Source: Promethearchaeota archaeon Loki_b32
GTDB taxonomy: Archaea; Asgardarchaeota; Lokiarchaeia; Sigyniarchaeales; SOKP01
Reading direction: 5' to 3'
Length of the DNA: 64,000 nucleotides
Assembly: GCA_005223125.1 (NCBI GenBank)
Contig: NJBH01000005.1
Coordinates: forward strand, 6,509-70,508
Below the pieces are notes generated by a model. That model saw nothing but the letters and a program-made list of their open reading frames with translations, was not told the DNA's origin and ran no database searches. Of this stretch, positions 4,232-32,434 are shown in pieces. Numbering within the stretch: the first letter of the stretch is position 1; each line of letters begins with the position of its first letter. Made by a program: the position numbers and the translations under genes.

Positions 4232-4765
4232 ATGACAATGGCTAGCTACGATTTTACATTTAAAATTTTGCTTTTAGGAGACGCAAGTGTAGGTAAAACT
4301 TCTTTCACAAAACGATATTGTTATAATATTTTCAATCCTAGTGAAAGATTGACTATTGGTGTTGATTTTCATGTTAAAACGATCGAATTAAACGACAGGC
4401 GAATTAAATTACAATTATGGGACGTTGGAGGTGAGGAAAGATTCAGATTCCTCTTACCAACATATTGTTTGGGGGCGAATGCCGCATTTTTACTATATGA
4501 TATTACGAGACCTTCTACATTGGATAATATTTCGGAATGGATTACTATTGTCAGGCAGAAAGGTGGCCCTATCCCAATTATGCTTGTTGGTTCTAAATTA
4601 GATCTTGAGAAAACTCAACGACAAGTTCAAAGAGATTATGGAATACAAATCGCTGAAAAAAACGACATGGCTAGTTTTGTCGAAATTTCAGCTAAAGAAA
4701 ATGCTAATGTAGATGATGCCTTTAAAGTTCTTACAGAACTCACATTAGACCGAATGAGTAAATAG
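4232..4765 (+). CDS. Rab/Ras-like small GTPase (atypical G3 and G4)
   Basis: G1 GDASVGKTS, switch I TIGVDF, G3 WDVGGEE, G4 GSKLD, G5 SAKE. 177 aa, no C-terminal Cys lipidation motif. Confidence 0.9.
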   Translation: MTMASYDFTFKILLLGDASVGKTSFTKRYCYNIFNPSERLTIGVDFHVKTIELNDRRIKLQLWDVGGEERFRFLLPTYCLGANAAFLLYDITRPSTLDNISEWITIVRQKGGPIPIMLVGSKLDLEKTQRQVQRDYGIQIAEKNDMASFVEISAKENANVDDAFKVLTELTLDRMSK

Positions 4766-4773
4766 GTGATATA

Positions 4774-5736
4774 ATGGAAGATACCGAATATTTGCCTCTT
4801 AACCAATTGTTCGATTCAATTGGCATCATAGAAAAAGGTATTGAAAGAATGTACCATTATCTCCTATTAAATAAGAGAATAGATAATTTAAAAGAAGTGT
4901 GTGATCAATTCAATCTCTCATTAAAAAGAGGGTATAAAATCTGCTCGGTATTAAGTGATCTAGAACTTGTACAAATTTATGATAGACCAATGAAAATTCA
5001 CATTGCTAATCCAATAATGACTTTGTGGCAAAATTTAATCCAAAAACGAATTGAAGACCTTAGAAATCAGTTCAATGAAAAAAGAGATAAGTGTGAATCT
5101 GCAATTGAAGATTTTACTAGAAATTATAAATTAGATCAGCAAGTAGTTCAAGAACCAGTTGAATTTATCAACTATAGTGTTAGTAATTTTGATGAATCGT
5201 ATCATCAGTTCTTAGCCCAAAGTGAATGTAAAATTGCTATAGGTATCAGATATGATAACCCTTTAATTTCCATGATCCATGAGGATCGTTTCCAAAATAT
5301 CCCTGATGATATGAGAACTTCTATGCGAGCCGGTATGAGTAGGATTAAAGAAAATCTAAGAAGTATAAGTGTGCAAGTTATCTTCAATTCTGAGGTTGCT
5401 AAAGATCTTTTAAGCAGTAATGAATTTAAACTTCTCACTAATCATGTTGAACCATACAATTTGGAGTTTAAAAAATTAGAGATTCATGTTACAGATGAAG
5501 CATTTAGTAATTTCAGTTTAACCGATAATGAACTTATTCAACCTAGTTTTGATCCTACAAACATTCTAATCGGTGCTTACATCTCCCGGAATAAAAACAT
5601 TTACCAAATATTCTACGATAAATTTAATGAGATTTTTGAAAAGGGCATACCAATGAATCGATTTATCACTGAACAAAAAGATATTGGTATTGATTCACTC
5701 TCAGAAACACAATTATTTGTTCTATGTGTAATGTGA
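4774..5736 (+). CDS. TrmB-like winged-helix transcriptional regulator with large C-terminal domain
   Basis: Starts 9 nt after the GTPase stop. The N-terminal ERMYHYLLLNKRIDNLKEVCDQFNLSLKRGYKICSVLSDLELVQIY fits the TrmB-type HTH. A ~220-aa C-terminal domain sits where TrmB has its effector domain. Confidence 0.6.
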   Translation: MEDTEYLPLNQLFDSIGIIEKGIERMYHYLLLNKRIDNLKEVCDQFNLSLKRGYKICSVLSDLELVQIYDRPMKIHIANPIMTLWQNLIQKRIEDLRNQFNEKRDKCESAIEDFTRNYKLDQQVVQEPVEFINYSVSNFDESYHQFLAQSECKIAIGIRYDNPLISMIHEDRFQNIPDDMRTSMRAGMSRIKENLRSISVQVIFNSEVAKDLLSSNEFKLLTNHVEPYNLEFKKLEIHVTDEAFSNFSLTDNELIQPSFDPTNILIGAYISRNKNIYQIFYDKFNEIFEKGIPMNRFITEQKDIGIDSLSETQLFVLCVM

Positions 5737-5778: not shown

Positions 5779-7269
5779 TTATTCTTTTTTCTTTTTTTGC
5801 ATTGCCTTTCTGAATTTTTCAAGCATTTTTCGAGGAGTTACCGTTGGTCTTTCGTATTTTCGTAATTTAGATTTGATTCCAAAAAGATATTTAGCAATAT
5901 CCTTAAGCCTTTCAGTATCGTAGCGCATCATCATTGTGATTGTTTCCATAGCGGGACTCCCACCTCCGTGTAACCCAGCTACTTGCATTAAACCCCCCAA
6001 ATCAGAAACTACCATAGCTTCTATCCCCCGAAAACAACGATAAATGTATTCTGGTTTGACTCTAGGGTTTCTTTTCAAATATTTCATTGCAAGATCTCCC
6101 ACTTCCTCAGAAAAGAAAGAACCTTCAAATGGTAAAGTAGCAATTAATCCTCCAGACAAATCTGCTAAAATTTTATATTCTTCATAGATATTTTCTCCAG
6201 CTAATCTTCTCCCCGCATTTGTAAGAATTTCATCGGGAATCTGAGTACCAGATGGAGATTTCTCTGAATGCCTTGCACTTGATTCTCCTGCCGCAAAAAC
6301 AAGCTCAGCAATTCCTATAATATGGGACAATTTATCTTGAACATGAGAAGCTTTCTCTATTCCATTGTATTCAGCAACTAAGGCAGCAGCAGAAGCTAAA
6401 ATTTCTGATACTGCTGGTTTACATCCAGTATATGTATGACGATGATAGTGAGCAAACATTAGAGCTAAGAATCCAGCGTAAGGAGTTTGTCTAGGGTCTC
6501 CATGACCATTTAGAAATATTCGTTCATTTGGTACAAAAACGTCATCAAAAATAATATATGTTTCAGCATCCCCCATTTGTAATCCTGGAGCATCCATGTG
6601 TTCACTTTTTCTATAATATGCGGGTCTTGTGAGCAATTTGACACCATCCCAATCTCCCGGTAATGCAAATGCTACAGCATAATCTTTATCTTCTGGACCC
6701 ATATACCTGCAAGGAACGACAATAAATTCATCAGCATATGGAGTATTGGTAATATTAATTTTACATCCTCTTACAACGATACCATCATCTCTGGTTTCTA
6801 TAACTCTCAGATATTGGTCTGGATCTTCTTGTTGGTGTGGTCGTTTTAAACGATCTCCTTTAGCATCAGTTTGAGCACAACTAGCTACTATGTCTCGATC
6901 TTGAAAATATTCTAAATATTTTATAAATCTTTTATAGTGGTCCGTTCCGAGAGCTTGGTCCATCTCATAGGTAATAACAGAAAGAGCATTTAATGAATCG
7001 ATACCCATACATCGCTGAATACAACCTCCAACACGATGACATAATAATCGAGTCATTTTTTGTCTTTTTAATAGATCTTCTTTACTTTGATGTATATGAC
7101 AAAAACGATTTATCTTTTTTCCCGTTATATGAGAAGTTACTGTGCATAGATCCTCATATTCTGGGTCGTAAGCACGATCGAACGTCTCTCTAATAATATT
7201 CATCCCTCCCCGAAGACGAGGGTCATCTCTACCAACTTTTTCTTCGCCAATATATACATTTGGCTTCAT
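5779..7269 (-). CDS. abfD: 4-hydroxybutyryl-CoA dehydratase / vinylacetyl-CoA isomerase (HpaB-fold family)
   Basis: Alignable by eye along its length to AbfD. Putative [4Fe-4S] ligand motifs CIQRCMGID and YHRHTYTGCK are present. Family-like N-terminal sequence continues in frame upstream to 7320. Confidence 0.88.
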   Translation of the reverse strand: MKPNVYIGEEKVGRDDPRLRGGMNIIRETFDRAYDPEYEDLCTVTSHITGKKINRFCHIHQSKEDLLKRQKMTRLLCHRVGGCIQRCMGIDSLNALSVITYEMDQALGTDHYKRFIKYLEYFQDRDIVASCAQTDAKGDRLKRPHQQEDPDQYLRVIETRDDGIVVRGCKINITNTPYADEFIVVPCRYMGPEDKDYAVAFALPGDWDGVKLLTRPAYYRKSEHMDAPGLQMGDAETYIIFDDVFVPNERIFLNGHGDPRQTPYAGFLALMFAHYHRHTYTGCKPAVSEILASAAALVAEYNGIEKASHVQDKLSHIIGIAELVFAAGESSARHSEKSPSGTQIPDEILTNAGRRLAGENIYEEYKILADLSGGLIATLPFEGSFFSEEVGDLAMKYLKRNPRVKPEYIYRCFRGIEAMVVSDLGGLMQVAGLHGGGSPAMETITMMMRYDTERLKDIAKYLFGIKSKLRKYERPTVTPRKMLEKFRKAMQKKKKE

Positions 7270-7429: not shown

Positions 7430-9493
7430 TTATGCATTTATTTCAGGAGCTTTCTTAATAAAAATCTCATTTATTAATGATTCAAATATAGGATGATCTT
7501 TTATTTCAATTACTCGATTAGCCTTTAAATATTTGTTCATTGTATCCCGTATAATATCAGAATTTTGTATGCTTTCTACAAATTGTGTTAATTTTTGGTT
7601 AGCTAGATATGTTTGCCCTTTGAATATATAGCAAATTGAGAAAGAACTAACTGATTGCATTAGTATCGTAAATTCACCAAATTTAGCACGATCAAGCCTT
7701 TTGGCAAAAATCTCTCCGCTAAAAGAATCAAATGCTGTTAAAAATCCACTTATAAGATCATTTTTGAAAGACCATTCTTTTGTAAAGGGATTAGAGAATA
7801 ACGGGAATCCACCTCCTCCAATAATTAAAAGCAATATTGGTGTTTCATGAGTTAATTCAGGTGGTTCTATAGCGCGTTTTCCTTGCATTCTATCTATAAC
7901 TCCTTTAAAAGATGCTAATTTTATGCGTTCTGACATGGGTGCATTTTCTTTTTCTAGATTTTTCCATGTACTTAACTGCTGCAATAATGTATCATGTTCG
8001 ACTGAGATTCTAATAGCTAACAAGTTAAGACCATGGAGTTCAGCTATTTGTTGAGATTGTGTTATTAGTTGTTCTGCTTCCTTGATCTGCATTTGAATTA
8101 GAGCCAGTTTTGCTTGTAATAATTTAATTTCTGCTAACCATAAATAAGCATTTTGTTTTTCTGCTATCTTGGAAATTTGAGCGATTAATGGATTTAATTC
8201 ATCCAAAACTTCTATGTTATTAGTAAAAGATAATTCTTCCAAAAAAATTTCACATAAGTTCACAAGCGCTAAGAGATTTAATTGAGGAGTGCTAATTCCT
8301 TCCCCAATTATTTGCTTTAGTAATAATTCTGCTTCTGTTCGATTCCGAATCCGATTACTCTGTTTCAAGACAAGTGCTTTTGTTATTGAATGCACTTGGC
8401 TGAATACTTTACTCTCATACTGATTGGTGAATTGCTCTAACCGCGTCAAATATAATTGTGCTTGTTCAAGAGAATTATTATCTAAACTAGTTAAAATTAA
8501 ATAAAAAAGTGAAGATGACATTCCGTAAACTGAATTAAATTTTTCTGAAAGTGCCATGCTATGTTGAAGATATTCTATAGCTTTATCAAAATCTCCTTTC
8601 ATCCTATAAGTAGCACCGATTCCCATTAAATTTTCTAGGAACTCATTATTATAACCTTCCTTTTCAGCAAGTTTAACTGCTCGGTTATAATAACTTAAAG
8701 TTCTGTCTAATTCACCCATTTCTTTATAGATGGCACCTAGAAGATGCAATATGCTGAATTTTGTAACAATACCAATTTCGTCAATATTTAATCCTTGTCT
8801 ACCAGTTTTTAACGCTCTATCAAAATCCCCTTTCATATAGTGACAAAGTCCAATTAAATTAAGACTTGCTCCAATACCTATTTGATTGTTTAATTCTTTT
8901 TGTATTACCAAACTTTTCATAGCATAACCTAAAGCTTTATCAGGTTCACTCTTAAAAATGTAAATATCCCCCATTTGACAATACATAAGTGCTATTTCGA
9001 GTTTTTCTTTTAAATCTTCTTCTAATGTTAACCATTCTTGAGATAGCTCAATCGCCTTACTGTGTTCAGTTGCATAATGACAAACAATGGATTTTATAAA
9101 TAAAATATCAGCTTTTTGTTTTGAAAATTCTGAGGATGAATCTTTTAAAATAGAATTAATCAATCTTTCAGCTTCTGAAATATATTCTAATGCTTGGTCT
9201 AGTTTTCCGTAAAATATAATATACGCTTTTATAACTAGAGAATCAATTACTTTAGGAATAAGTCCTATTTTTTGACTTAATTGGTAAGCCTTTTCTCCGA
9301 CTTCTACAGCCTTTTTATATTGTTCTTTATAGCAATATATTTTACTTTTTAAAATCAATATTGATAACTGTTCTTTAGTCTCGTTTATTTTCTTCTTCTC
9401 GAGATTTGTAACTATCTTAAGCGCGTCCTCAAATTTAGCTTGATACATTATTTGTTCCGCGTAGGTTAACTCTTTAAGTATTGAATCGGACAA
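7430..9493 (-). CDS. TPR-repeat protein with C-terminal longin-like domain (paralog of 18934..20889)
   Basis: 687 aa, TTG start. There are many TPR-like repeats (..GDFDKAIEYLQHSMAL.., ..GELDRTLSYYNRAVKLAE..). The C-terminal ~140 aa (ILLLIIGGGGFPLFSNPF..DLISGFLTAFDSFSGEIF..FTILMQSVSSFSICYIFKG..) have a bbabbba pattern. Confidence 0.75.
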   Translation of the reverse strand: MSDSILKELTYAEQIMYQAKFEDALKIVTNLEKKKINETKEQLSILILKSKIYCYKEQYKKAVEVGEKAYQLSQKIGLIPKVIDSLVIKAYIIFYGKLDQALEYISEAERLINSILKDSSSEFSKQKADILFIKSIVCHYATEHSKAIELSQEWLTLEEDLKEKLEIALMYCQMGDIYIFKSEPDKALGYAMKSLVIQKELNNQIGIGASLNLIGLCHYMKGDFDRALKTGRQGLNIDEIGIVTKFSILHLLGAIYKEMGELDRTLSYYNRAVKLAEKEGYNNEFLENLMGIGATYRMKGDFDKAIEYLQHSMALSEKFNSVYGMSSSLFYLILTSLDNNSLEQAQLYLTRLEQFTNQYESKVFSQVHSITKALVLKQSNRIRNRTEAELLLKQIIGEGISTPQLNLLALVNLCEIFLEELSFTNNIEVLDELNPLIAQISKIAEKQNAYLWLAEIKLLQAKLALIQMQIKEAEQLITQSQQIAELHGLNLLAIRISVEHDTLLQQLSTWKNLEKENAPMSERIKLASFKGVIDRMQGKRAIEPPELTHETPILLLIIGGGGFPLFSNPFTKEWSFKNDLISGFLTAFDSFSGEIFAKRLDRAKFGEFTILMQSVSSFSICYIFKGQTYLANQKLTQFVESIQNSDIIRDTMNKYLKANRVIEIKDHPIFESLINEIFIKKAPEINA

Positions 9494-13201: not shown

Positions 13202-13759
13202 CTATAATTCTGCTGATAATTCTTTATATTTATGGTACAACTTATCTATTATTTCATTAAAAGCTTCAATAACTCCTTGTTCTGTTTTTGCTGAGGTTAT
13301 ATAATACCCAAGGAAATTTCGTTCATTAACTACTCCTGGAATAATTGAATTATCCAAGCTATTCTCGTCCACTAAATCCACTTTATTTGCAAATAAAACT
13401 ACAGGAATATTGCCACAAAATTGTATGATATTATCATGCCAATTTGCTATATGATTGAAACTCTCCTCACCAAGGTTATTTTCCTCCAAACTATATACAA
13501 TAATAGCACCTCTACTATTCCTAAAAAATGAGGGACGTGCAAAACTGAACTCATCCTGGCCAGCTATGTCCCAGAATAGTAGTCTAATATCATTTCCATC
13601 AATTTCTTTATCATAAACCGAGAATTGGGCTCCTATTGTCTTAATATAATCCTTTTGAAATGATCCCTTTGTAAATTTTTGAATTAGGGACGTTTTTCCT
13701 ACTCTTCCATCCCCTACAATCGTAATTTTAAAATTAAATTTTAACCTTGAGTTCTTCAT
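13202..13759 (-). CDS. Rab/Ras-like small GTPase (paralog of 18261..18815)
   Basis: G1 GDGRVGKTS, TIGAQF, G3 WDIAGQDEF, G4 NKVD, G5 TSAK. 121/185 identical to the paralog by hand alignment. Confidence 0.92.
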   Translation of the reverse strand: MKNSRLKFNFKITIVGDGRVGKTSLIQKFTKGSFQKDYIKTIGAQFSVYDKEIDGNDIRLLFWDIAGQDEFSFARPSFFRNSRGAIIVYSLEENNLGEESFNHIANWHDNIIQFCGNIPVVLFANKVDLVDENSLDNSIIPGVVNERNFLGYYITSAKTEQGVIEAFNEIIDKLYHKYKELSAEL

Positions 13760-14193: not shown

Positions 14194-16116
14194 GTGGTTA
14201 CTACATGTAATTATCCCCCTGAAGAGATAATAAAACCTATTTTTGAAAGGCCTAACTACGAATTTATTATCCTATGGATTTTAAATAATAATGAAGTATG
14301 CACTTGGGCAAACTTGAAAGTAAAAATTAAACATTCAACATTATCAATCTATTTAAGCCGACTTAAAGATAAAGAATATATTGAAAAAAGTTCATTTAAT
14401 CATTATATTATCACCTCTAAAGGTAAGGACAGATATTATGAACTGTCTTTAGCGAGTAAAAAAAAGCGAAAATTAAGTTATCCTCCTAAAGCTATACGTA
14501 GAAGGAGGAATTATGATCACTGGATTCTTTGGATGGTGTATAATAATAATTATTGCAAATGGTCCGATTTTCTTGAACCACCTCTTTCAATCAATCAATC
14601 TTCTTTATCTAAAAACCTAAATTCATTACAAGATAAAGAATTTGTAAGAAAAGAAGAAAAAGAATATAGAATTACTCGATTAGGAAAAACTGAATATTCA
14701 AATATGCTAAGACTATATGATTTAGACAGACAATCAATCTTAGAGGAAGAAGGTAAACGGATTAAAGAAATTACTAAAAGAACAATTAGCTTCTTTGAAA
14801 AATACAAAATAAAAGATAATGATATTAAATTTCGATTTTTAAATAATAAGTTAAAGCTTCCATATGAAAAAGTTAAATCTACTTTAGATAATGAAGAAGA
14901 ATATGATAAAATTTTACTTTACCTCTCCATAAATCATCCTAATCATTTTCCTAAGTATATATCCCCCGAAGAATGTTCTAAAAAGTACAACATCAATTTG
15001 GTTAAACTTAATTTTATTATTCTTCGAATCGTAGAAGAAAATATCTTTCCAATAAAATTTTTTAAATTAGAATCTGCTGATGGAAAAATTTTTTATTTTC
15101 AAGTGAATGAAAAATTAGAAAGAATGCTAAATGCTATTGTTGAGGATCACATTACAAAATTTTCATATTTGAACAATTTATATGAAGAAACACCTGGGGA
15201 AACATCGCCATTAACAATGGAAAGCACAGTTACAGCAATCTTGGATGAGATTTGCGATAACCTTTTCAATAATGGTTTAAAGGAATCATTAAGTGATTTT
15301 CTTCCAGTATATATTAATTACTTAGCTTATAAAATCGAAAGGGAGAGAAAATTATTAGATACTTATGATAAATTAGAGGGATTAATTTGGCAAGAGATTC
15401 AAATAAAATTTTTTGATTTAGTTGAAGTTGAATATCCAACTGAAACAAAAGAAGCAAACAAAGCTATTCGAGAAATTGATAAAGCTATTAAATTGAATCC
15501 TGACAAGCTTGATTTATACTATTCAAAAAGCAAAATTCTAATTGATCTAGGAGAATACAAAGATGTTTTATCGATTTTAGATAAAATGCTTATAGATTTC
15601 CCTCAAGAAGAGAAAAATATCCAAATAAAAAAAGCATATGTTCAAAAAGAAATGAAAAATATTGAAAAGGGACTAGAAATTATTGCCTCATTACTTAAAA
15701 AATATCCTGACAACAATGATCTTCTTAATTATAAAGCTTGTTGGTTACAGTATCTTAATCGTAAAGAGGAATCTTTAGAAATTAGTCAAAAACTTATAGA
15801 GAATGTACCTGATAATGCTACTTATCATGATACATACGGTGAAATTTTAATGTATTTTAATGAACATGAACATGCCATTGAGGAATTTCTGAAAGCAATT
15901 GAAATAAACAGCGATGATTGGTACGTATACCAAACTTATATAAAATTAGGGATTTGTTATAAGGAACTAGAAAATTATGACTTGGCAACTGAATATCTTC
16001 AAAAAGGAATAGAATCTACAGAAGAGTCATCAGGGGATAACGAGACAAAAAATAAATGGATTGCAATTGCTAATCTATTCGTTGCAGAGATAGAGCAACT
16101 AGAAATAGAATTATGA
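14194..16116 (+). CDS. Double winged-helix (wHTH x2) + C-terminal TPR protein (paralog of 22709..24625)
   Basis: 640 aa, GTG start. Two tandem modules each begin [NS]YPP[EK] and carry wHTH-like segments (IILWILNNNEVCTWANL..; HWILWMVYNNNYCKWSDF..LSINQSSLSKNLNSLQDKEFVRK). The C-terminal part has TPRs (..DWYVYQTYIKLGICYKELENYDLATEYLQKGI). Confidence 0.75.
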   Translation: MVTTCNYPPEEIIKPIFERPNYEFIILWILNNNEVCTWANLKVKIKHSTLSIYLSRLKDKEYIEKSSFNHYIITSKGKDRYYELSLASKKKRKLSYPPKAIRRRRNYDHWILWMVYNNNYCKWSDFLEPPLSINQSSLSKNLNSLQDKEFVRKEEKEYRITRLGKTEYSNMLRLYDLDRQSILEEEGKRIKEITKRTISFFEKYKIKDNDIKFRFLNNKLKLPYEKVKSTLDNEEEYDKILLYLSINHPNHFPKYISPEECSKKYNINLVKLNFIILRIVEENIFPIKFFKLESADGKIFYFQVNEKLERMLNAIVEDHITKFSYLNNLYEETPGETSPLTMESTVTAILDEICDNLFNNGLKESLSDFLPVYINYLAYKIERERKLLDTYDKLEGLIWQEIQIKFFDLVEVEYPTETKEANKAIREIDKAIKLNPDKLDLYYSKSKILIDLGEYKDVLSILDKMLIDFPQEEKNIQIKKAYVQKEMKNIEKGLEIIASLLKKYPDNNDLLNYKACWLQYLNRKEESLEISQKLIENVPDNATYHDTYGEILMYFNEHEHAIEEFLKAIEINSDDWYVYQTYIKLGICYKELENYDLATEYLQKGIESTEESSGDNETKNKWIAIANLFVAEIEQLEIEL

Positions 16117-16138: not shown

Positions 16139-17929
16139 TTAATTATCTTCAACTAATTTTTCTAATTCATCAATTTTATCGGAGAGATATTGAATTCCCT
16201 TTTCCCAGAAGGAAGGGTCATTTAAATTAATACCAATTTCAGCCAGCAATTCTTCGGGAGAAAGTGAACTCCCTAGAGATAGTAATTTTAGATACTTAGG
16301 AACGAATTCCTCTTTCTGTTCAAGATACATTTGGTAGATTGAAATCACCAAAAGGTTTGACATGTTATATGCATAAACGTAGAATGGAACATTTATAAAA
16401 TGTGGAACTACAAAAATATAATTAGCATATTCTTCTCTTAAGTTAGTCATAGAATTCCCAAACATTAATTCCATTTCTTTTATAAAAGCATCTTTAATTT
16501 CTTCTGTTGTTGGTAATTTTTCTTCCATCAATCCATGAATAGCTTTTTCAAATCTATAAAAGGCATTTTGTCTATGTGAAGTTCCAAACTTAGATTCAAT
16601 AAAATTACTAAGTAATGAAATCTTTTCATCCTTTGACAAATCAGTATTCATCAAATAATCAGAGATTAAGATTTCATTGAATACTGATGCAATTTCAGCA
16701 ACCACTAGGGAGGTTTCTATATTTACAAAGTTTTGATTTCTTTGAATATAATAGGCATGGAATGCATGACCAAGTTCATGAGCTAAAGCTCTTACTGAAT
16801 CAATGGTATCTACAAAATTAACAAAAACGAAGCCATAATGTTTTTGTTTTCCATGTGCACAAAAAGCACCTCTATTTTTTCCTTTTCTTGGAGTTGCATC
16901 GATATGATTAAATTCAACCATTTTCTCTATAATGTCTTTAAACTCAGGAGAAAATTTTTCATCAGATTCCTTTATTAATTCTAAAGCTTCTTGGTAGGAA
17001 TATTTTCTTGTTATTTGCCCAACTGGTGCGTACATATCTGACATATGTAATTCTGTAAGGTTTAGGAGCTTTTTCTTTAAATTATAATATTTTTCAACTA
17101 AATGATAACTTTCTGTAGTAACCTTTCCACATATCTCAACACTCTCATCACTTACTTCATTTTCAAGATTTCTTCTTGATATCGGTTTTTTGAAATTTCT
17201 TTTGGAGCATTCTAGATCCCAATCTCTTAGGATATTATTGTAAATATGGGTGAAAATCATCTCATTTTTCTTGTATTCTGCCATCATTGTTTGTAGCGCT
17301 TTGTAGCGAAGGTCTCTATTCTCCTGATACATATAAGCAAAAAGTTCTGCTTCAGTTAATTTCTTCATTTCGCCATCTACTTCAAAATCATAAGTGAAAT
17401 TGCTTTTGTATTCACTATAGAGTTTGATAAAGCCCTTTACACCAGTCATATCCTTCATTAAGATAATCTGTTCTTCCTTTTCTGAAAGTTGATTTAATTT
17501 TTTCTTCCTATTGAATTTAAGAGCATGAGTATAGTGTTCTAATTCCGAAGCTTTTATTAATTCTTCAAATTTATTATCAGAGATTTTGTTTAACTCCAAA
17601 TTAAAGAATAAAAGCTTTTGTTGAATTTTTACTTTAAACTCCTCAATTTTTGAAAAGAATGCTTTTACATCATCATCAAGATTATTTGTTCTTAATAATA
17701 ATTCTGCAAACGATTCAAAGTAGAATGTTTTTTCAGACACTTTTTCATACTCTTTAAACCATTCTAGAAGTTGTTTGGGTGTGAGGGAAGGATCCTCTAA
17801 CTTACCCTTAACATTTTGATAAAATTCTTCTGCTAATTTTTCTATATCCTTGATATCTGTTTCAATTAATGGATCATTGATATCTATATAGAAATCCCTT
17901 AAGTCCCATTTAATGATTTCTTGCATCAT
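16139..17929 (-). CDS. pepF: Oligoendopeptidase F (M3B metallopeptidase)
   Basis: 596 aa. Zinc motif HELGHAFH in the expected context, and length typical of the M3B family. Confidence 0.88.
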   Translation of the reverse strand: MMQEIIKWDLRDFYIDINDPLIETDIKDIEKLAEEFYQNVKGKLEDPSLTPKQLLEWFKEYEKVSEKTFYFESFAELLLRTNNLDDDVKAFFSKIEEFKVKIQQKLLFFNLELNKISDNKFEELIKASELEHYTHALKFNRKKKLNQLSEKEEQIILMKDMTGVKGFIKLYSEYKSNFTYDFEVDGEMKKLTEAELFAYMYQENRDLRYKALQTMMAEYKKNEMIFTHIYNNILRDWDLECSKRNFKKPISRRNLENEVSDESVEICGKVTTESYHLVEKYYNLKKKLLNLTELHMSDMYAPVGQITRKYSYQEALELIKESDEKFSPEFKDIIEKMVEFNHIDATPRKGKNRGAFCAHGKQKHYGFVFVNFVDTIDSVRALAHELGHAFHAYYIQRNQNFVNIETSLVVAEIASVFNEILISDYLMNTDLSKDEKISLLSNFIESKFGTSHRQNAFYRFEKAIHGLMEEKLPTTEEIKDAFIKEMELMFGNSMTNLREEYANYIFVVPHFINVPFYVYAYNMSNLLVISIYQMYLEQKEEFVPKYLKLLSLGSSLSPEELLAEIGINLNDPSFWEKGIQYLSDKIDELEKLVEDN

Positions 17930-17964: not shown

Positions 17965-18180
17965 CTAGGATTTATCATTGAATTTGAAATTTTTAGTCTT
18001 CAAGCATTTTTTGTTATTAATCTTAAATACAAATTGAAGAAGTTCATTGGAAAGTAATTTTTGAGGAGAAAGATCGTCTCTTTTTTCTAATTCCAAAACG
18101 ATTTGGAAGGCTTCCTTAATTCTGCCTTCTTCCATGAGTTGTCTTGCTTGAATCAATTCTTTAATTTCAGAATGAGACAT
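17965..18180 (-). pseudogene. 5' stub of a third TPR/longin-family gene
   Basis: The first ~48 aa (MSHSEIKELIQARQLMEEGRIKEAFQIVLELEKRDDLSPQKLL) match the N-termini of 7430..9493 (MSDSILKELTYAEQIMYQAKFEDALKIVTNLEKKK) and 18934..20889 (MSHSELNQITRAEELFDAGKLDEALEIL). Similarity is then lost and the ORF stops at 71 aa. Confidence 0.55.
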
Positions 18181-18260: not shown

Positions 18261-18815
18261 CTATAATTCTGAAGATAATGCTTTATATTTATAATATAAT
18301 TTTTCAATAATTGCATTAAATGCTTCTATTACTCCCTGTCCACTTTTTGCGGAAGTAATATAGTATCCGAGAAAATTATATTCTTTGACATATTTTTGAA
18401 TTTCAAGTTCATTTAAATTATTTTCTTTCACCAAATCAACTTTATTGGCAAACAAAACTACAGGAATATCGCCACAATACTTTTTTAATTCATTATACCA
18501 ATTTTTTATATGTAATAAGCTGTCTTTTCCTAAATCATTTGCTTCAAGGCTACATACAATAATGCACGCTCTACTTTCTTTATAAAATAAAGGATGTAGA
18601 AAATTAAAATCATCTTGACCTGCAATATCCCAAAATATTAAATTAATTACATCCCCATTAATTTCTTTATCATATCTTGAGAATTGGGCACCTATCGTCT
18701 TAACATAATCTTTTTCAAAAGTTCCTATCGTAAATTTTTTTATTAAAGATGTTTTGCCGACCCCTCCATCTCCTATTACGGATATCTTAAATCCAAATTC
18801 CTTAGAATTAGTCAT
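18261..18815 (-). CDS. Rab/Ras-like small GTPase
   Basis: G1 GDGGVGKTS, TIGAQF, G3 WDIAGQDDF, G4 NKVD, G5 TSAK. Lies 118 nt downstream of the TPR/longin gene on the same strand. Confidence 0.92.
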   Translation of the reverse strand: MTNSKEFGFKISVIGDGGVGKTSLIKKFTIGTFEKDYVKTIGAQFSRYDKEINGDVINLIFWDIAGQDDFNFLHPLFYKESRACIIVCSLEANDLGKDSLLHIKNWYNELKKYCGDIPVVLFANKVDLVKENNLNELEIQKYVKEYNFLGYYITSAKSGQGVIEAFNAIIEKLYYKYKALSSEL

Positions 18816-18933
18816 TAAATCATTAAGTGTTTCTCAAATTATATCATATTTTTAATGTAAAATTAGATATTGTTTAATATAAAATTTTAGCTAAATGAAT
18901 TTTGGAAATAATAAAGGTTCTTTGATTTAGAAG

Positions 18934-20889
18934 TCATAATTCACTAAATACCATACTCTTAGTGATAAAAATTTCTGTTATTAAGGATTCAAGTAAGGGG
19001 ATATCTTTTAATTTAATAGACTGGCTTACTTGAAAAGATTTAAGTAAATTTTGCCAAATATCCTCTTCTTTTTGGATGTGTTCCATAAAATAATTTATCT
19101 TCTGGTGAGCATAATAAGAATCACCTTTAAATATGTAAGAAATAAAAAAAGGTGGAATAGATTTCATAAGAAGAGTATATTCACCAAAGGTTGCTCGGTC
19201 TAGTCCTTCAGAGAACATTTCCCTAATAAAATAATCAATAGTGGTTAAAAAACCGCCAAAAAGATGTGATTCAAGAGATTTTTCCTTTACAAAAGAGTGG
19301 GAGAATAAAGCTGAACCTCCTTCAGTTATTATAAAAATTGAGAAAGGTTCCTCATCTGAAAACTCTGGAGTTTCAATCATTCGTTTTTTTACTATATTCT
19401 CCATTTGCTCGTTCAAACCAGCAAGCTTCCAACGTTCAGATAAAGGTGCTTCTGATTCTTTTAACTTCTCCCACATAGTTATTTGTCTAAGTAGTTCATC
19501 ATGTTCATGTGAAATTTTCATTGCTAATCGTTTAATTCCGTATTTTTCAGCTATCTTTTGGGCTTGAGTTAAAAATCGTCTGGCTGCTTTCATATCAAAA
19601 TTTATTAAAGCTAATTTCGCCTGTAATATGAAAATTCTACAAAAATGAATATATGAATGTGTTTTTTCAGCTATAGTTAATAATTTAGCAATATAGTGAT
19701 TTAATTCATCAAGTACTTCATTACTATTAGTAAAACGATACTCTGAAAGAAGCAATTCACAAAGATGAACAGTTGCTTGTATTGCAAATTGACCCCATAT
19801 AGTTTCTGTGTCTATTATTTTTTTGAATATTTTTTCAGCTTTTGCTTTATCGCGAATTCGCGAACTCCTTTTTAGCATTAAAGCTGTACATAATTTGTAG
19901 AGTAAAACAATTGTTCCATCTTTTTTTTGATTATACAAATTTTCTAGTCGATTGTAATATTTCTGAGCAAGTTCATTATCACCTATTTCAAGAGCCACTT
20001 CAACTAAATTAGAAAGAGGAAAATCTAATGCCAAAGATAGCTTTTCATGGTATAATAAGCATTCTTCGAAATATTCCAAAGCAAGGTTGAAATTACTAAG
20101 TTGATAATAGTTTCCACCTATATTATTAAGTACCAATGCAAAAAAATAATTGTTTTTGATTGCTCTAAATATCGCCAAACTTTTCATGTTATATTTCAAG
20201 CCAATATCTATCTCGCCTAGAGTTGAATGTAACACCCCTAAATACAATTGACCGAAAGCAATCCAGAAATGATTAAATTTAATTTGTTTTGCTATCGATA
20301 ATGCTTTCTTGGCATACTCCCCACCAAGTTCATAGTAACTTTTTCCTTGATACATAAGTCGTGCCTTTAAAAAAGTAGCCCAAACAATTTCAAATGTATT
20401 ACCAAGCTTATTGTGTGAATCTAAGACCCAATTTAAACAATTTTCTGCTAAATCTTGATTATTTAACTCCAGATTAATCCATCCTTTTAAAACTCTTAGA
20501 CGAATTTTTCTCTGAAAAAAAACACTTTTAGATATATCAGAAATAAGTCCTAATAACACTTCAGCAATTTCAATTTTTTGATAAGCTTCCTTAAATTTAT
20601 CACTTAGACCTAATCCGATGATAATAAAAAATAACCCATCAAACGATTGAAGATTATCATTAAGATCTTGACCTTCTTTAAATAATTGTTCACCAAACTC
20701 AATAAGTTCATCGCATTTGTTCTGGTGCATTAGAATTAAGCCCTTAAGAAGCTGAAAATAAACTTTTTGCTGAGAATTAAGCCCTTCAAATTGTACTCTA
20801 TCGTTTAATATCTCAAGAGCCTCATCAAGTTTACCCGCATCAAAAAGTTCTTCCGCTCTTGTTATTTGATTTAGCTCTGAATGAGACAT
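18934..20889 (-). CDS. TPR-repeat protein with C-terminal longin-like domain
   Basis: The track ORF runs to 20964. The internal Met at 20889 (MSHSELNQ..) matches the paralog N-termini, so it is the preferred start. C-terminal block: FSIFIITEGGSALFSHSF..HLFGGFLTTIDYFIREMF..YTLLMKSIPPFFISYIFKG. Confidence 0.75.
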   Translation of the reverse strand: MSHSELNQITRAEELFDAGKLDEALEILNDRVQFEGLNSQQKVYFQLLKGLILMHQNKCDELIEFGEQLFKEGQDLNDNLQSFDGLFFIIIGLGLSDKFKEAYQKIEIAEVLLGLISDISKSVFFQRKIRLRVLKGWINLELNNQDLAENCLNWVLDSHNKLGNTFEIVWATFLKARLMYQGKSYYELGGEYAKKALSIAKQIKFNHFWIAFGQLYLGVLHSTLGEIDIGLKYNMKSLAIFRAIKNNYFFALVLNNIGGNYYQLSNFNLALEYFEECLLYHEKLSLALDFPLSNLVEVALEIGDNELAQKYYNRLENLYNQKKDGTIVLLYKLCTALMLKRSSRIRDKAKAEKIFKKIIDTETIWGQFAIQATVHLCELLLSEYRFTNSNEVLDELNHYIAKLLTIAEKTHSYIHFCRIFILQAKLALINFDMKAARRFLTQAQKIAEKYGIKRLAMKISHEHDELLRQITMWEKLKESEAPLSERWKLAGLNEQMENIVKKRMIETPEFSDEEPFSIFIITEGGSALFSHSFVKEKSLESHLFGGFLTTIDYFIREMFSEGLDRATFGEYTLLMKSIPPFFISYIFKGDSYYAHQKINYFMEHIQKEEDIWQNLLKSFQVSQSIKLKDIPLLESLITEIFITKSMVFSEL

Positions 20890-21066
20890 AATTTTAATTA
20901 ATTTGGATGCAACCTTATGAATAAATAAGCTAATTATAATTTTAAATCTAGCGTTTAAGACCATTAAAAAAAAGATTTTCCATTTCTTAATTATTGAGTC
21001 GATGAATTAGAAAGGGACTAAAAAAGAAAAAAAAAAATTAATTAGAAATTTTTTCATTTATTGCGT

Positions 21067-22708: not shown

Positions 22709-24625
22709 ATGGGAATCATAAATTATCCTCCAGAAAAGATCTATAGCCCTTCCAAGTTGAAAAGGCCGGACTATGACCATATTATTCTCTGGATGTTGAA
22801 TAATAATGATTATTGTAAGTGGGCTGACTTTCGTCAAGAAGCGATTGAAATTCCTACAGGTACATTATCTAGGCATTTAGATACATTAAAACGTAAGAGC
22901 TTTATAGAAAATTTTACTAGAGGGCATTACAGAATTACTTCAGAGGGAAAAAAGAAATTTCATGAACTATCAAGTGCGAAGAAAAAGACACGTAACCTAA
23001 ATTATCCTCCTAAAATCATCTTAAAAAGTGGAAGAGAATACGCTCACTGGATTCTTTGGATGGTTTACAATAATAACTATTGCAAAAGGTCTGACTTCCT
23101 TGAAGATCCATTATCTATAAATCAATCTTCATTGTCAAAGAATTTGAGTTTGTTAATAGAAAGGGGATTTATAAAAAAAGAGGATGGGAAATATGTAATT
23201 ACCCTAGCAGGTAAATCAGAATATTCAAGGATGCTTCAAAATTATGATTTAGATAGACAAACTATTTTAGAAGAGGAAGGTAAACGAATTGAAGAGATTA
23301 CTAAAAAAACTATTAAATTTTTCGAGAGATTTAGAATAGAAGAGAAAGATATTCAATTTAGATTTCTCAACAATATATTAAAATTAGATTATGAAAAAGT
23401 AAAACCATTATTAAAAGATGAGGAGCCTTTTCATAAAATCTTACTTTTTCTTTCAATTAATCATCCGGATCAATATCCAAGCTTTATTTCCTCTGAAGAT
23501 TTTTCCAAAATCTATAAAATTAAGAAAACTACGCTTGACTATTATATTGATGAGATTTCAGAAGGCAAAATATATCCATTACGATTTTTTAAGTTAACAC
23601 ACCCCTCAGGTGAGCTATATTACTTTCAATCAGATGGAAGACTAGAAAGTATACTTCGGGTAATTACAGAGAATCAAATCAATAAAGTCAGTTATTTGAA
23701 TAAACTTTTTTCAAAGCCAACAGCAAAAGTGCTAACAATAGATATGAAATCCATTATAAATGATATCACAGATAAGAGTTGTGAATTCTTGTTTAATAAG
23801 GATTTAAACGCGTCATTAAGAGAATTTTTACCAGAATATATTAAATATCTAGCTTATAAAATTGAGACTAAAAAGAAATTAAAAGAAACTTATGATAAAT
23901 TAGAGGGAATTATCTGGCAAAACATAACAGATATTGTTCAATCACAAATCTCTGAAAATTTAGAAAATCAATATGAAGAACAAATAGAAGGGATTGATAA
24001 AGAAATTGAATTAAACCCAGAAAATCTTAACTTATATTATTCGAAGATTAGAATTCTGATTTATTTTAACCAATACCAAGAAACAATAAAATTCTTAGAT
24101 GAAATGTTTGAAATTTTTCCTGAAAGTGAAAAAGATATTAAAATATTAGAAGCAGCTGTTTTTAGAAGAATGCAAAAATTTAAAGAGGGATTCGAAATTA
24201 TCGAGTCTTTAATTGAAAAATATCCTGAAGACAATGATCTTCTTAGTTATAAAGCCTATTGGCTACAATTTTTAGATAAAAAAGAAGAAGCAATAGAAAT
24301 AATTCAAAAACTCACAAAAGATGAACCCGATAATGGAATTTATCATGACACTTTTGGTGAAGTTTTAATGTATTTTGAAGATTATGAAGAAGCGGCTAAG
24401 AAATTTGTAAAGTCAATGGTTTTAGGAGCCCATGAATGGTATATTTTCCAGACTTATATCAAATTAGGAATTTGTTATAAAGCAATTGGGAATCTTGATT
24501 TAGCAGTCGAAAACCTCAAGAAAGGGATAGAACTAACAAAGAAAAATTTAATCGATACTGAAACAAAACATAAATGGCTTTCGATAGCTAATCTTTTTCT
24601 TGCTGAAATAGAACAATTTCTCTAA
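22709..24625 (+). CDS. Double winged-helix (wHTH x2) + C-terminal TPR protein
   Basis: 638 aa, collinear with 14194..16116 (NYPPE, HWILWMVYNNNYCK, PLSINQSSLSKNL, YDLDRQTILEEEGKRIEEITK, WYIFQTYIKLGICYK). Confidence 0.75.
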   Translation: MGIINYPPEKIYSPSKLKRPDYDHIILWMLNNNDYCKWADFRQEAIEIPTGTLSRHLDTLKRKSFIENFTRGHYRITSEGKKKFHELSSAKKKTRNLNYPPKIILKSGREYAHWILWMVYNNNYCKRSDFLEDPLSINQSSLSKNLSLLIERGFIKKEDGKYVITLAGKSEYSRMLQNYDLDRQTILEEEGKRIEEITKKTIKFFERFRIEEKDIQFRFLNNILKLDYEKVKPLLKDEEPFHKILLFLSINHPDQYPSFISSEDFSKIYKIKKTTLDYYIDEISEGKIYPLRFFKLTHPSGELYYFQSDGRLESILRVITENQINKVSYLNKLFSKPTAKVLTIDMKSIINDITDKSCEFLFNKDLNASLREFLPEYIKYLAYKIETKKKLKETYDKLEGIIWQNITDIVQSQISENLENQYEEQIEGIDKEIELNPENLNLYYSKIRILIYFNQYQETIKFLDEMFEIFPESEKDIKILEAAVFRRMQKFKEGFEIIESLIEKYPEDNDLLSYKAYWLQFLDKKEEAIEIIQKLTKDEPDNGIYHDTFGEVLMYFEDYEEAAKKFVKSMVLGAHEWYIFQTYIKLGICYKAIGNLDLAVENLKKGIELTKKNLIDTETKHKWLSIANLFLAEIEQFL

Positions 24626-24716: not shown

Positions 24717-25121
24717 ATGTCAAATAATATAAAATATGCTGAAATTTGGTTCAAACAAGCTAAATATGATTTAGAAGCAGCTCTGGTAAGTAAAGAAAAT
24801 GGTAGTTATGAGTGGGCATGTTTTCAAGCACAACAGTCAGCCGAAAAGGCTCTAAAAGCGTTTCTTTTCTTAAATAGAAAAAGAAATGTTATTTTACATT
24901 CAATAAGAAAACTTATTGAAGAATGTGGGGCAATCAATAAGGAATTTTTTAAATTAAAAAAAGCAAAAGTATTAGATCAATATTATATCCCTACACGATA
25001 TCCAAATGGACTTCCTGATGAAGTTCCTCATGAATTTTATATGTTGGAGGATGCAGATTTATGTGTAAAATATGCTCAGAAGATTATTCAATTAGTAGCA
25101 ACGATATTAAAGAAAGTTTGA
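24717..25121 (+). CDS. HEPN domain protein (toxin-like partner of MNT)
   Basis: 134 aa. Rx4H motif RNVILH and YYIPTRYPNG, both typical of HEPN proteins paired with minimal nucleotidyltransferases. Confidence 0.8.
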   Translation: MSNNIKYAEIWFKQAKYDLEAALVSKENGSYEWACFQAQQSAEKALKAFLFLNRKRNVILHSIRKLIEECGAINKEFFKLKKAKVLDQYYIPTRYPNGLPDEVPHEFYMLEDADLCVKYAQKIIQLVATILKKV

Positions 25122-25405
25122 AAACTTTTATACACGCAGTGGCAAATGAATTTGAAATAGAGAAAATTATTCTATTTGGAAGTTATGCTAGAGGAGATTA
25201 TCATGAAAATAGTGATATAGATTTAATTATTGTAGGCAACTTTGAGGAAAGATTTTTTGATAGAATTGGAAATATTCTTGAATTAGTTCCAAATAATCTA
25301 AACATTGAACCACTTGTGTATACAAATGAAGAATTTGATAAAATGAGTGAAAATGGAAATCCTTTCCTTTTAACCGTAATTTCTGAAGGATTGAACTTGT
25401 TATAA
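25061..25405 (+). CDS. Minimal nucleotidyltransferase (MNT, antitoxin-like)
   Basis: GSYARGDYHENSDIDLII matches the GSxxRG..DxD nucleotidyltransferase motif. As called it overlaps the HEPN gene by 61 nt, so the real start may be further downstream. Confidence 0.8.
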   Translation: MCKICSEDYSISSNDIKESLKTFIHAVANEFEIEKIILFGSYARGDYHENSDIDLIIVGNFEERFFDRIGNILELVPNNLNIEPLVYTNEEFDKMSENGNPFLLTVISEGLNLL

Positions 25406-31288: not shown

Positions 31289-32434
31289 ATGCAAGAAGTA
31301 GGTGATTCTTTAGTTTCAGTTCTTGTTGTAGATAGAGAGGGATTGGTTGTTGATATATTAACAATAGATTCTGATAAATCGGATGAAAAAAAGTTTATTG
31401 GAGCTTTTAGTTCTTTAGTTGAATTGGTACTAAAAAAATTGACTCAAGATTTTGATCTTGGAACTTTTGGTGCCGGGACATTTGATACAGATAAATACCG
31501 ATTTATTTTTTGTGAGTCTGGATCTAGCCATGTTTTAGTTTCCATTCTCAATCATACGACGTTAGTTGATGACGTATTTCCATATACTTATTTAACTGCT
31601 GACAAAGTAGCGAGGATTATAGATGGAGAATTACCAGTTAGCCCTGTGATTCCTAAAATAAAAAGAGATACTGAACTTGAAAAAGTAAAGAGAAAAATGG
31701 AATACTATCAAAGCAAACCTCATTCACAAGAATATGTTTATAAACTTTCTCTAATCGGAGATGGAGGCGTTGGTAAAACTAGCATGGCACAAAGATACGT
31801 TCATGGAATATTTAAAGCAGATTACAAAGCAACAATTGGTACATATATTTCTAAGAAAGAATGCAAATTTAAAGAATTGAATACTTTTGTAAGATTTATG
31901 ATATGGGATTTAGCAGGACAAAGTCAATTTGAACGATTATGGCCAGATTATTTGACAGATTCCCGTGCAGGAATCATAGTTTTTGATATAACAAACCAAG
32001 AATCATTTGACCATGTAAAGATGTGGTATGATATTATCAAACGAGTCGCATTACCTAATATTATATTAATTCTTGTAGGAAATAAAGTGGATCTAAATAC
32101 ATCCAGAATTATTTCTACAGAACAAGCTTTAGAATTAGCTAAGGAATTAGGAATCTATTATATGGAGACCTCAACAAAAACAAATGAAAATATTGATAAC
32201 GTGTTTAAGTGGATTGCACTTCAAATCATTAATTTGAATATCGAAGAAGTAAAAGATACATTATTTGATAAACAAATCGAAGAGGGCTCAAAATTTGTTA
32301 TTTCAAGCCCACAATTAACAATTTTGAATCAATATTTCGCTAAGCAACTAGACTTCTGTATAGGAAAAAGTGATACTAAAGAAATCATTAAATACTTAGA
32401 CATTTTAAAAGCAATTGGAAAAAATAAATTATAA
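31289..32434 (+). CDS. Roadblock/longin-like domain fused N-terminally to a Rab/Ras-like GTPase
   Basis: Residues 1-~115 (LVSVLVVDREGLVVDILT..FIGAFSSLVELVLKKL..YRFIFCESGSSHVLVSILN..) look LC7/roadblock-like. The GTPase part has G1 GDGGVGKTS, TIGTYI, G3 WDLAGQSQF, G4 NKVD, G5 TSTK. A ~70-aa tail follows. Confidence 0.85.
   Translation: MQEVGDSLVSVLVVDREGLVVDILTIDSDKSDEKKFIGAFSSLVELVLKKLTQDFDLGTFGAGTFDTDKYRFIFCESGSSHVLVSILNHTTLVDDVFPYTYLTADKVARIIDGELPVSPVIPKIKRDTELEKVKRKMEYYQSKPHSQEYVYKLSLIGDGGVGKTSMAQRYVHGIFKADYKATIGTYISKKECKFKELNTFVRFMIWDLAGQSQFERLWPDYLTDSRAGIIVFDITNQESFDHVKMWYDIIKRVALPNIILILVGNKVDLNTSRIISTEQALELAKELGIYYMETSTKTNENIDNVFKWIALQIINLNIEEVKDTLFDKQIEEGSKFVISSPQLTILNQYFAKQLDFCIGKSDTKEIIKYLDILKAIGKNKL

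Follow-up and report, generated by a model that had tools for sequence, protein, structure and literature searches.

That Asgard archaea possess longin-like and roadblock domains, some of them fused to GTPases, is already well known. Lokiarchaeum encodes 41 longin-like and 38 roadblock domains together with 109 Ras-superfamily GTPases (PMC4917890), 130 roadblock/longin Asgard clusters of orthologous genes (asCOGs) have been delineated (Liu et al., bioRxiv 10.1101/2020.10.19.343400), and structures and models are available (PMC10933270), in a study that also documents roadblock-type domains fused directly to Ras-family GTPases in these organisms. As gene neighborhoods, the closest precedents are MglB/MglA and other roadblock-GTPase pairs, in which a prokaryotic gene of the roadblock/longin superfamily lies beside a gene for a Ras-superfamily GTPase, and an Asgard operon that combines a LAMTOR1-like roadblock protein, a Rab-like GTPase and a DENN protein (bioRxiv 10.1101/2020.10.19.343400). 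In MK-D1, operons that unite a GTPase gene with a roadblock/longin gene are generally not seen, so that gene layout gives little help in predicting cognate pairs (Tran et al. 2024, PMC10933270). The gene pair described here is an exception to that tendency. It lies in a stretch of 64,000 nucleotides from Promethearchaeota archaeon Loki_b32 (contig NJBH01000005.1, positions 6,509 to 70,508; hereafter the window) and consists of a gene for a protein with tetratricopeptide repeats (TPRs) and a C-terminal longin-like domain, followed by a gene for a Rab-like small GTPase. It resembles the roadblock-GTPase pairs in gene order and differs from them in the longin-type topology of the domain and in its fusion to TPRs; it also has no DENN component, in contrast to the LAMTOR1-like operon. 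What appears to be new is this TPR-longin family and its conserved pairing with a GTPase: neither the family nor its linkage to one Rab-like subfamily was found in the searchable literature, a scope that does not extend to supplementary listings such as the asCOG tables or those of Klinger et al. 2016.

The window has a G+C content of about 30%, and its nearest relatives are metagenome-assembled genomes (MAGs) labelled Promethearchaeota, the phylum of the Lokiarchaeia-type Asgard archaea. Both genes are on the minus strand: the TPR-longin gene at 18934..20889 (651 aa, with its stop codon at 18934-18936) is separated by a spacer of exactly 118 nt (18816..18933) from the gene for the GTPase at 18261..18815 (184 aa). 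An initial annotation of the window had singled out this arrangement, and its coordinates, strand, spacer length and quoted protein segments all proved correct. Mechanically, the open reading frame (ORF) of the first gene extends to an upstream ATG at 20964, giving 676 aa from the first ATG (18934..20964), and a 95% identical database protein (P0242) has been called at that length. The start at 20889 is nevertheless the likely one, because homologs in our alignments are about 650 aa long and share a conserved MSHxEL start. The resulting protein is predicted to have three parts, all encoded on the minus strand: a TPR superhelix (residues 1-478; 19456..20889), a low-confidence helical linker (residues 479-513; 19351..19455) and the longin-like domain (residues 514-642; 18964..19350).

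The fold of the C-terminal domain was predicted with AlphaFold2 (AF2) from residues 500-676 of the 676-aa ORF and an alignment of 41 sequences. The model has a mean predicted local distance difference test (pLDDT) score of 75, with the five-stranded antiparallel sheet and the C-terminal helices at 86-95 and helix α1 at just 55-66, and its elements follow the order β-β-α-β-β-β-α-α-α (β1-β2-α1-β3-β4-β5-α2-α3-α4), with strands at 40-48, 53-58, 91-94, 97-104 and 107-114 and helices at 67-87, 118-133 and 135-146 in the numbering of the model. A second, full-length AF2 run (pLDDT 85) reproduces the α/β topology at residues 514-642 and shows one such domain, joined by the low-confidence linker to a 478-residue TPR superhelix. 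The initial annotation had read a strand-strand-helix-strand-strand-strand-helix pattern in the last ~140 residues and taken it for the longin topology; every segment that it listed corresponds to a single element of the model, namely FSIFIITEGG to β1, ALFSHSF to β2, HLFGGFLTTIDYFIREMF to α1, ATFGEY to β3, TLLMKSI to β4, FFISYIFKG to β5 and YYAHQKINYFMEHIQ to α2, with two more helices after these.

Structural comparison of the domain with Foldseek likewise bore out the topology. The top 50 matches in the PDB are exclusively longin (about 40 of 50) or roadblock (about 10 of 50) folds, with a best E of 2e-4, probabilities of 0.93-1.00 and template modeling (TM) scores of 0.45-0.61. The longin matches comprise the σ subunits and μ N-terminal domains of AP-1, AP-2 and AP-3, ζ- and δ-COP, VAMP7 and Sec22b, as well as the TRAPP subunits Bet5/Trs23 (including 2j3t_C, the best of the list by TM), Mon1-Ccz1, Fuzzy-Inturned and BLOC-3; AP-σ and sybindin-type TRAPP subunits, the very proteins that the initial annotation had invoked, are thus among them. 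The roadblock minority consists of MP1/p14 and other LAMTORs of the Ragulator, MglC and LC7. Many of these proteins are subunits of GTPase regulators or of GTPase-binding coats. Neither GAF or PAS structures nor chains of FLCN, NPRL2 or SMCR8 appear among the top 50. The model predicts a longin-type rather than a roadblock-type topology, by the distinction drawn in PMC10933270, because a strand comes first and the helices are C-terminal, with no confidently packed N-terminal helix.

At the sequence level the link to known longin families is almost absent, and it is by predicted fold that we file the domain as longin-like, outside every curated longin family. Pfam and NCBIfam recognize TPRs in the N-terminal two-thirds of the protein and leave the last ~170 residues blank. 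None of the curated longin/roadblock models (Longin, Sybindin, Sedlin_N, Clat_adaptor_s, Fuz_longin_1 and Robl_LC7) scores above threshold on the domain, the family consensus sequence yields no match, and the family profile retrieves nothing relevant among PDB sequences. A search of the PDB with the single domain sequence gives weak matches to the GAF domain of CodY (E 0.03). The sole echo of a longin family comes from five of the 41 family members, which match Fuz_longin_1 below threshold (best E 0.024); this model describes the first of the longin domains in the FUZ/MON1/HPS1 RabGEFs.

The family is large. An exhaustive HMMER scan of 1.84 billion representatives (E<=1e-3) yielded 781 clusters at 50% identity, nearly all of which are 600-700 aa long and end with the longin-like domain; wherever a source is named, it is an Asgard MAG. 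In the databases its members are called "hypothetical protein" or "tetratricopeptide repeat protein", and longin is never mentioned. Conservation was judged on a deliberately diverse core alignment (A3) along with two further alignments (A1 and A2). Few positions are invariant in A3: a Glu before β1, the second Gly of the E-G-G motif in the β1-β2 hairpin, the Arg of SEGLDR where α1 meets β3 (Arg565 in the 651-aa protein, R61 in A3), a Tyr in β5, the Gly of a KG motif right after β5 and a Phe in α2. The neighbor of the arginine, D564 (D60 in A3), is near-invariant. The hairpin has the family consensus SEGGxPLFS, in which the glycines are often followed by x-P, and reads TEGGSALFS in the window protein. 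The E-G-G motif (E523-G524-G525) is encoded at 19315..19323 and the D564-R565 pair at 19195..19200, both on the minus strand and both identified in all three alignments; D564-R565, which are near-invariant in A1 and A2, are candidate functional residues, conceivably an arginine finger or part of an interface.

The GTPase matches Pfam Ras (E=1.7e-37) and NCBIfam small_GTP. Its best sequence matches in the PDB are Rab21 (2.7e-29), Rab23, Rab35, Rab9 and Rab32, followed closely by Ran and RhoA; the Thorarchaeota Rab 7ezb is matched too. All of the motifs G1-G5 are canonical (G1 GDGGVGKT, the switch-I Thr in YVKTIGAQF, G3 WDIAGQD, G4 NKVD and G5 TSAK) and the catalytic Gln is present; there is no intrinsic Arg finger. 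The protein ends in YKYKALSSEL with no C-terminal Cys prenylation motif (CC, CXC or CAAX), and the C-termini of 52 orthologous GTPases are variable and also free of a Cys motif. Because of this missing Cys we regard the protein, from its sequence, as Rab-like rather than as a bona fide prenylated Rab. The shared C-terminal "SEL" was considered as a peptide read by the TPRs in the manner of Pex5/PTS1 or Hop/EEVD and rejected, as the termini vary among the 52 orthologous GTPases and the family proteins.

The N-terminal region is predicted as a superhelix of about 24 helices, forming roughly 12 TPR-like pairs, with pLDDT mostly above 90 in the full-length AF2 model. Pfam TPR_12 matches it above the cut-off (1.9e-10), further TPR models, TPR_MalT included, give weaker matches, and Foldseek relates it to the TPRs of LGN/Pins, to MalT domain III (TMt 0.74) and to NprR/Rap. 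The TPRs of LGN/Pins, of MalT domain III and of the NprR/Rap quorum-sensing receptors bind protein, peptide or small ligands. The linker reaches pLDDT values of only 33-49 near residues 494-510; its sequence, WExLKES..LSERWKLAGLNEQ, is conserved.

Linkage between the two genes was assessed from both directions. In a domain-seeded set drawn from one genome per GTDB species (74 loci, 834 kb, 124 family ORFs), 52 of the 124 family ORFs have a same-strand neighbor downstream that encodes a GTPase with 70-90% identity to that of the window, at a distance of 63-391 nt (median 111), and 30 are followed by another family member, which produces arrays of the forms T-G, T-T-G and T-T-T-G. Ten are uninformative, nine lying at a contig edge and one having no gene within 1.5 kb downstream. 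Viewed from the GTPases, 52 of the 75 Ras-family ORFs in these 74 loci have a family member as their immediate upstream neighbor, in the same orientation. Because just 23 other Ras-family ORFs occur in the 834 kb, roughly one per 36 kb, adjacency by chance within a window of ~100 nt is of the order of 0.1%, and the pairing is far beyond chance. A GTPase-seeded set from a separate, independent metagenome collection gives the same picture: a TPR-longin gene lies directly upstream of 31 of the 41 informative close orthologs (>=72% identity) and of 10 of the 25 more distant paralogs. The adjacency pointed out in the initial annotation is therefore conserved in both seeding directions, across many Asgard genomes and metagenome contigs.

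The two partners also appear to have diverged together. Distances between longin-like domains correlate with distances between the adjacent GTPases (Mantel r 0.60; maximum of 2000 permutations 0.18), and the pairing persists down to about 52-60% domain identity, across at least three subfamilies. CP070831 holds two diverged modules, one with a GTPase 91% identical to that of the window (L005) and one with a GTPase 71% identical (L037). Since single genomes carry two such modules, we conclude that the pair was duplicated and diverged as a unit.

The spacer bears on how the module is expressed. Its length is conserved, the median over 52 genome pairs being 111 nt, and an alignment of 43 loci reveals a near-invariant element, AAAATTTTATAT (18877..18888, minus strand), that resembles a transcription factor B recognition element (BRE) and TATA box. 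About 10 nt after it and roughly 60 nt upstream of the GTPase ATG comes a second conserved block of the form CTAATyTTACATT (CTAATTTTACATT; 18854..18866, minus strand), and the transcription-start region is likely to be at or just past the 3' end of this block. A similar element, TTTTATAT...CTAATCTTA, precedes an unpaired GTPase paralog in the window (13202-13759). The conserved TATA-like element suggests that AAAATTTTATAT is probably the BRE/TATA box of an archaeal promoter belonging to the GTPase gene itself. Of the "operon-like" description in the initial annotation, the common strand and the conserved adjacency stand, whereas a separate GTPase promoter is suggested by the near-invariant element; with such an element in the spacer, co-transcription as an operon is doubtful, although read-through would be compatible with it. 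A structured RNA in the spacer was considered and rejected in favor of a DNA-level promoter signal: RNAalifold finds no consensus structure, the minimum free energy z-score is +0.4, and Rfam has no match in the window. The idea that the motif is a dispersed repeat or a general promoter consensus was likewise rejected, because its matches in the window are at chance level.

Several eukaryotic systems provide a framework for interpreting the pair. The longin Rab guanine nucleotide exchange factor (GEF) platforms, namely the TRAPP core (Bet5/Trs23, i.e. TRAPPC1/C4), Mon1-Ccz1, the Fuzzy-Inturned CPLANE complex and HPS1-HPS4 (BLOC-3), share with it the predicted longin fold, the weak Fuz_longin_1 echo and a Rab-like partner whose best solved relatives include Rab21, Rab23 and Rab32, and TRAPPII/III additionally have large helical-repeat subunits beside their longin core. 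They differ in that the tri-longin RabGEFs (Mon1, Ccz1, Fuzzy, Inturned, HPS1 and HPS4) have three longin domains per subunit, against one in our full-length AF2 model, and in that TRAPP has a multi-subunit core whereas here a single longin-like domain is fused in cis to a TPR solenoid; moreover, the host is archaeal, sequence-level membership in these families is absent, and no Bet3/TRAPPC3 partner was seen nearby. The longin GTPase-activating protein (GAP) complexes FLCN-FNIP, GATOR1 NPRL2/3 and C9orf72-SMCR8, with their Asgard look-alikes (PMC12290439), also place a longin fold next to a small GTPase; they have a GP motif at the end of the β1-β2 loop, and our family has a conserved Gly-containing β1-β2 hairpin in a similar location and an invariant arginine. 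In those proteins the motif is GP, whereas the family consensus is EGG(x)P and the window protein has EGGSA; their arginine fingers are FLCN R164, NPRL2 R78 and SMCR8 R147, of which Arg565 is a candidate equivalent; and they have a DENN domain and Rag/Arf clients, whereas our protein has no DENN domain and a Rab-like partner. LGN/Pins/AGS3 combine a helical solenoid (the LGN TPRs being among the best fold matches of our N-terminal region) with a small module, GoLoco, that binds a G protein; GoLoco is not a longin domain. Finally, the σ-adaptins and ζ-COP, the best matches of the C-terminal domain, form hemicomplexes with the large subunits of AP and COPI coats, whose solenoids are HEAT/ARM-like and separate chains, and there is no evidence of homology to these coats or of a coat function here; both comparisons are analogies only. 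The initial annotation's suggestion of a prokaryotic analog of a longin GEF platform accordingly holds for the fold and for the linkage to a GTPase, while the likeness is one of fold only, with no sequence profile of a longin family behind it. As a whole, the observation is confirmed, and its interpretation finds support as far as fold and genomic linkage are concerned.

In the mechanism that we infer, the 651-aa protein would consist of two modules and be the partner of the GTPase whose gene follows its own. The longin-like domain would probably act as a dimer, a homodimer here or a heterodimer in genomes with two or three tandem paralogs, and this dimer would form a platform that docks the Rab-like GTPase, as roadblock/longin proteins dock Ras-superfamily GTPases, and sets its nucleotide state. 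The superhelix of 12 repeats would bind a protein or peptide ligand and couple an input or a location to the GTPase switch, and the gene pair would be maintained as a module in which the GTPase is probably expressed from its own promoter in the spacer. That the TPR-longin protein controls the nucleotide state of its neighbor we consider an evenly balanced proposition. In favor of that role we count the predicted fold, the synteny found from both directions, the co-divergence, the canonical switch of the GTPase, and the polar D-R pair and the EGG hairpin as members of a small set of invariant residues. Within it we lean slightly toward a GEF, because the sole sequence echo is Fuz_longin_1 and because, to our knowledge, all longin-based regulators of Rab-type GTPases (TRAPP, Mon1-Ccz1, BLOC-3, CPLANE and DENN) are GEFs. 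A GAP acting through Arg565 is a close second and nearly as plausible, given that this arginine is invariant while the GTPase has none of its own, and that the glycine hairpin lies about where longin GAPs have their GP motif (PMC12290439). Pairings of this general type are physical in the lineage, since roadblock domains are fused to Ras-family GTPases (PMC10933270), probably also in the window at 31289-32434.

In its full form, namely a true cognate pair, duplicated and co-diverging as a module, in which the Rab-like GTPase has a dedicated regulator of longin-platform type, either GEF or GAP, mounted on a ligand-binding TPR solenoid, this reading is tentative, and we think it somewhat less probable than not. 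Several observations weigh against a regulatory role of the protein. After 32 of the 124 family ORFs the next gene is something else; in the window itself a TPR-longin paralog (7430-9493) precedes an HpaB-type gene rather than a GTPase, and upstream of a 65% identical GTPase paralog (13202-13759) there is no TPR-longin gene. Because many loci are orthologous, shared ancestry inflates the counts, which do not represent independent events; the Mantel correlation partly reflects species phylogeny. The promoter-like element in the spacer leaves co-transcription unestablished. On the structural side, the likeness of fold is moderate at the TM scores and E-values given above, with no sequence profile above threshold, and pLDDT is low in both AF2 models for α1, the helix expected to form the platform. 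Some of these points are shared by the view that the two proteins are neighbors without direct interaction, the domain being a small-molecule sensor of GAF/PAS type or a mere dimerization module and the gene order being kept by shared regulation or by inheritance among close genomes. All loci come from one archaeal lineage, and phylogenetic inertia must therefore contribute to the synteny; about a quarter of the family genes have no GTPase, the GTPase seems to have its own promoter, and the weak CodY match would fit a GAF-like sensor. Against this, no GAF or PAS fold is among the top 50 structural matches, the synteny survives to the domain identities and across the subfamilies noted above, diverged modules coexist in single genomes, and the length of the spacer is itself conserved, for which reasons we hold this view to be distinctly improbable.

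A further alternative retains the interaction and reverses its direction: as an effector or adaptor, the protein would recognize the GTPase in its GTP-bound form and be recruited or switched in turn, leaving the nucleotide state unchanged. Contact could be made through the TPRs, as in p67phox-Rac, or through the longin-like domain, as in AP/COPI-Arf1. The conserved synteny is explained equally well in this way, a large TPR solenoid of ligand-binding type suits an adaptor, and the top structural matches, AP σ/μ and ζ/δ-COP, belong to Arf effectors rather than to GEFs or GAPs. An invariant Arg, together with tight conservation of the hairpin and the α1 region, points beyond passive docking, however, and most solved longin/roadblock platforms that touch Ras-superfamily GTPases directly change the nucleotide state (PMC10933270); on balance we judge an effector role unlikely, though the least so among the alternatives to a regulator. 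We give still less credence, and consider it very unlikely, to a signaling or conflict module having little to do with regulation of the membrane-traffic type, in which a MalT/STAND-like TPR sensor would perceive a (possibly foreign) ligand, with the GTPase as the switch and an effector such as TIR fused in some relatives. It is in keeping with this idea that the TPR region is like MalT domain III and the NprR/Rap sensors, that a C-terminal TIR domain occurs in three of ~226 representatives, and that family genes are heavily duplicated in tandem, as is often the case with conflict genes. Yet the TIR fusions are rare and none occurs in the fetched loci, PADLOC gives generic matches only (TPR, plus TIR in the fused relatives) and leaves the GTPase unmatched, no phage or mobile-element context was seen, and the strong conservation of the GTPase (70-90% identity) contrasts with the rapid evolution of immune components.

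Variation within the family was also recorded. The TIR-bearing members (P0180, P0201 and P0235; ~795 aa, from outside the window) have TIR_2 after the longin-like domain with E from 1e-17 to 1e-19. A defense-system reading of the family was rejected, PADLOC reporting nothing system-specific and TIR fusions being rare. A fixed order of subfamilies in the tandem arrays, which would have been a sign of an obligate heterodimer, was rejected too, as the arrays are mostly duplicates of the same subfamily. Two of the seemingly standalone 150-aa versions were examined and discarded as such, being split or frameshifted TPR-longin genes. In L157 (2437-4462) and L158 (2644-4459) the gene calls divide the protein into a TPR part and a longin-like part, with overlaps of 14 and 32 nt, which could be due to a frameshift, an assembly error or a real split, and in L157 a GTPase still lies downstream. 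A true standalone member of 184 aa (P0371; gene 4001-4555 in loci L155/L156) is found in a Lokiarchaeota MAG between UQ_con (E2) and ThiF (E1) genes, with a 2120-aa TPR/MIT protein close by and no adjacent GTPase; this hints that some members may work with a ubiquitin-like system instead of a GTPase. The MAGs of L003, L008, L009, L012, L014, L022, L033 and others are labelled Hodarchaeota, Hermodarchaeota, Thorarchaeota, Odinarchaeota or Heimdallarchaeota, while their loci show 70-80% protein identity and near-identical intergenic DNA to Promethearchaeota loci. Such labels do not seem trustworthy, and it may be that only Lokiarchaeia-type genomes carry the family.

Other genes of the window touch on the same families. 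The second TPR-longin paralog (7430-9493, minus strand, 687 aa) is 46% identical to the 651-aa protein in the C-terminal domain and 30% in the N-terminal region, and is followed by the gene for an HpaB-type hydroxylase (5779-7269, minus strand); the order TPR-longin then HpaB recurs in L157, downstream of a TPR-longin/GTPase pair. A 71-aa ORF at 17965..18180 (minus strand), which begins MSHSEIKELIQARQLMEEGRIKEA, resembles TPR-longin proteins over their initial ~60 residues, with BLASTP E=1e-7 against the N-terminus of the 651-aa protein and 3e-6 against the paralog at 7430-9493. A further family gene was probably truncated here by the M3 oligopeptidase gene at 16139-17929, leaving this remnant. 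The unpaired Rab-like GTPase paralog (13202-13759, minus strand) lies ~4.5 kb downstream of the paired GTPase, and this arrangement of two GTPase genes (g1...g2) recurs in related loci, e.g. L003, L017 and L023. Two paralogous proteins of ~640 aa, with two N-terminal winged-helix DNA-binding domains and C-terminal TPRs, are encoded on the plus strand at 14194-16116, as the divergent neighbor of that GTPase paralog, and at 22709-24625, upstream of the TPR-longin gene by a few genes; a regulatory role connected with the modules is possible.

The remaining GTPases of the window include a 381-aa protein (31289-32434, plus strand) with a Ras-family domain at residues ~150-315 and an N-terminal stretch of ~120 residues that shows a roadblock-like β-β-α-β-β-β pattern and a sub-threshold match to Pfam Robl_LC7 (E=0.029). 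It is probably a roadblock-GTPase fusion of the Asgard type. A link between the TPR-longin family and its N-terminal domain was tried with hhalign and discarded; the alignment is in register, at a probability of 1.7%, which is not evidence. The fourth Ras-family GTPase (4232-4765, plus strand, 177 aa) is followed after 8 nt by a gene for a 320-aa protein with no Pfam match (4774-5736, plus strand), a tighter and more operon-like spacing than that of the TPR-longin/GTPase pair. Elsewhere, a HEPN gene (24717-25121, plus strand; Pfam E 2.9e-27) overlaps a nucleotidyltransferase gene (25061-25405, plus strand; E 3.8e-13) in the usual HEPN/MNT toxin-antitoxin arrangement.

Asgard archaea have about a hundred Ras-superfamily GTPases and dozens of roadblock/longin proteins, and nobody knows which regulator matches which GTPase. 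A conserved, co-diverging TPR-longin/Rab-like module offers a concrete pair for work on binding, exchange, hydrolysis and structure, and therefore a direct test of whether longin-platform control of Rab-type switches predates eukaryotes. Because a family of 781 clusters has a C-terminal domain that is invisible to Pfam and goes under the name "TPR repeat protein", the counts of longin-like domains obtained for Asgard archaea from sequence models may be too low. If the two proteins are a true cognate pair, it would be the first time that a regulator of an archaeal small GTPase could be recognized from genome sequence, and the module would be a plausible pre-eukaryotic relative of the eukaryotic machines that join a solenoid to a longin domain in the control of GTPases, such as TRAPP, Mon1-Ccz1, GEFs of the CPLANE type and the longin GAPs, and possibly also of the large-subunit/σ hemicomplex of adaptor coats.

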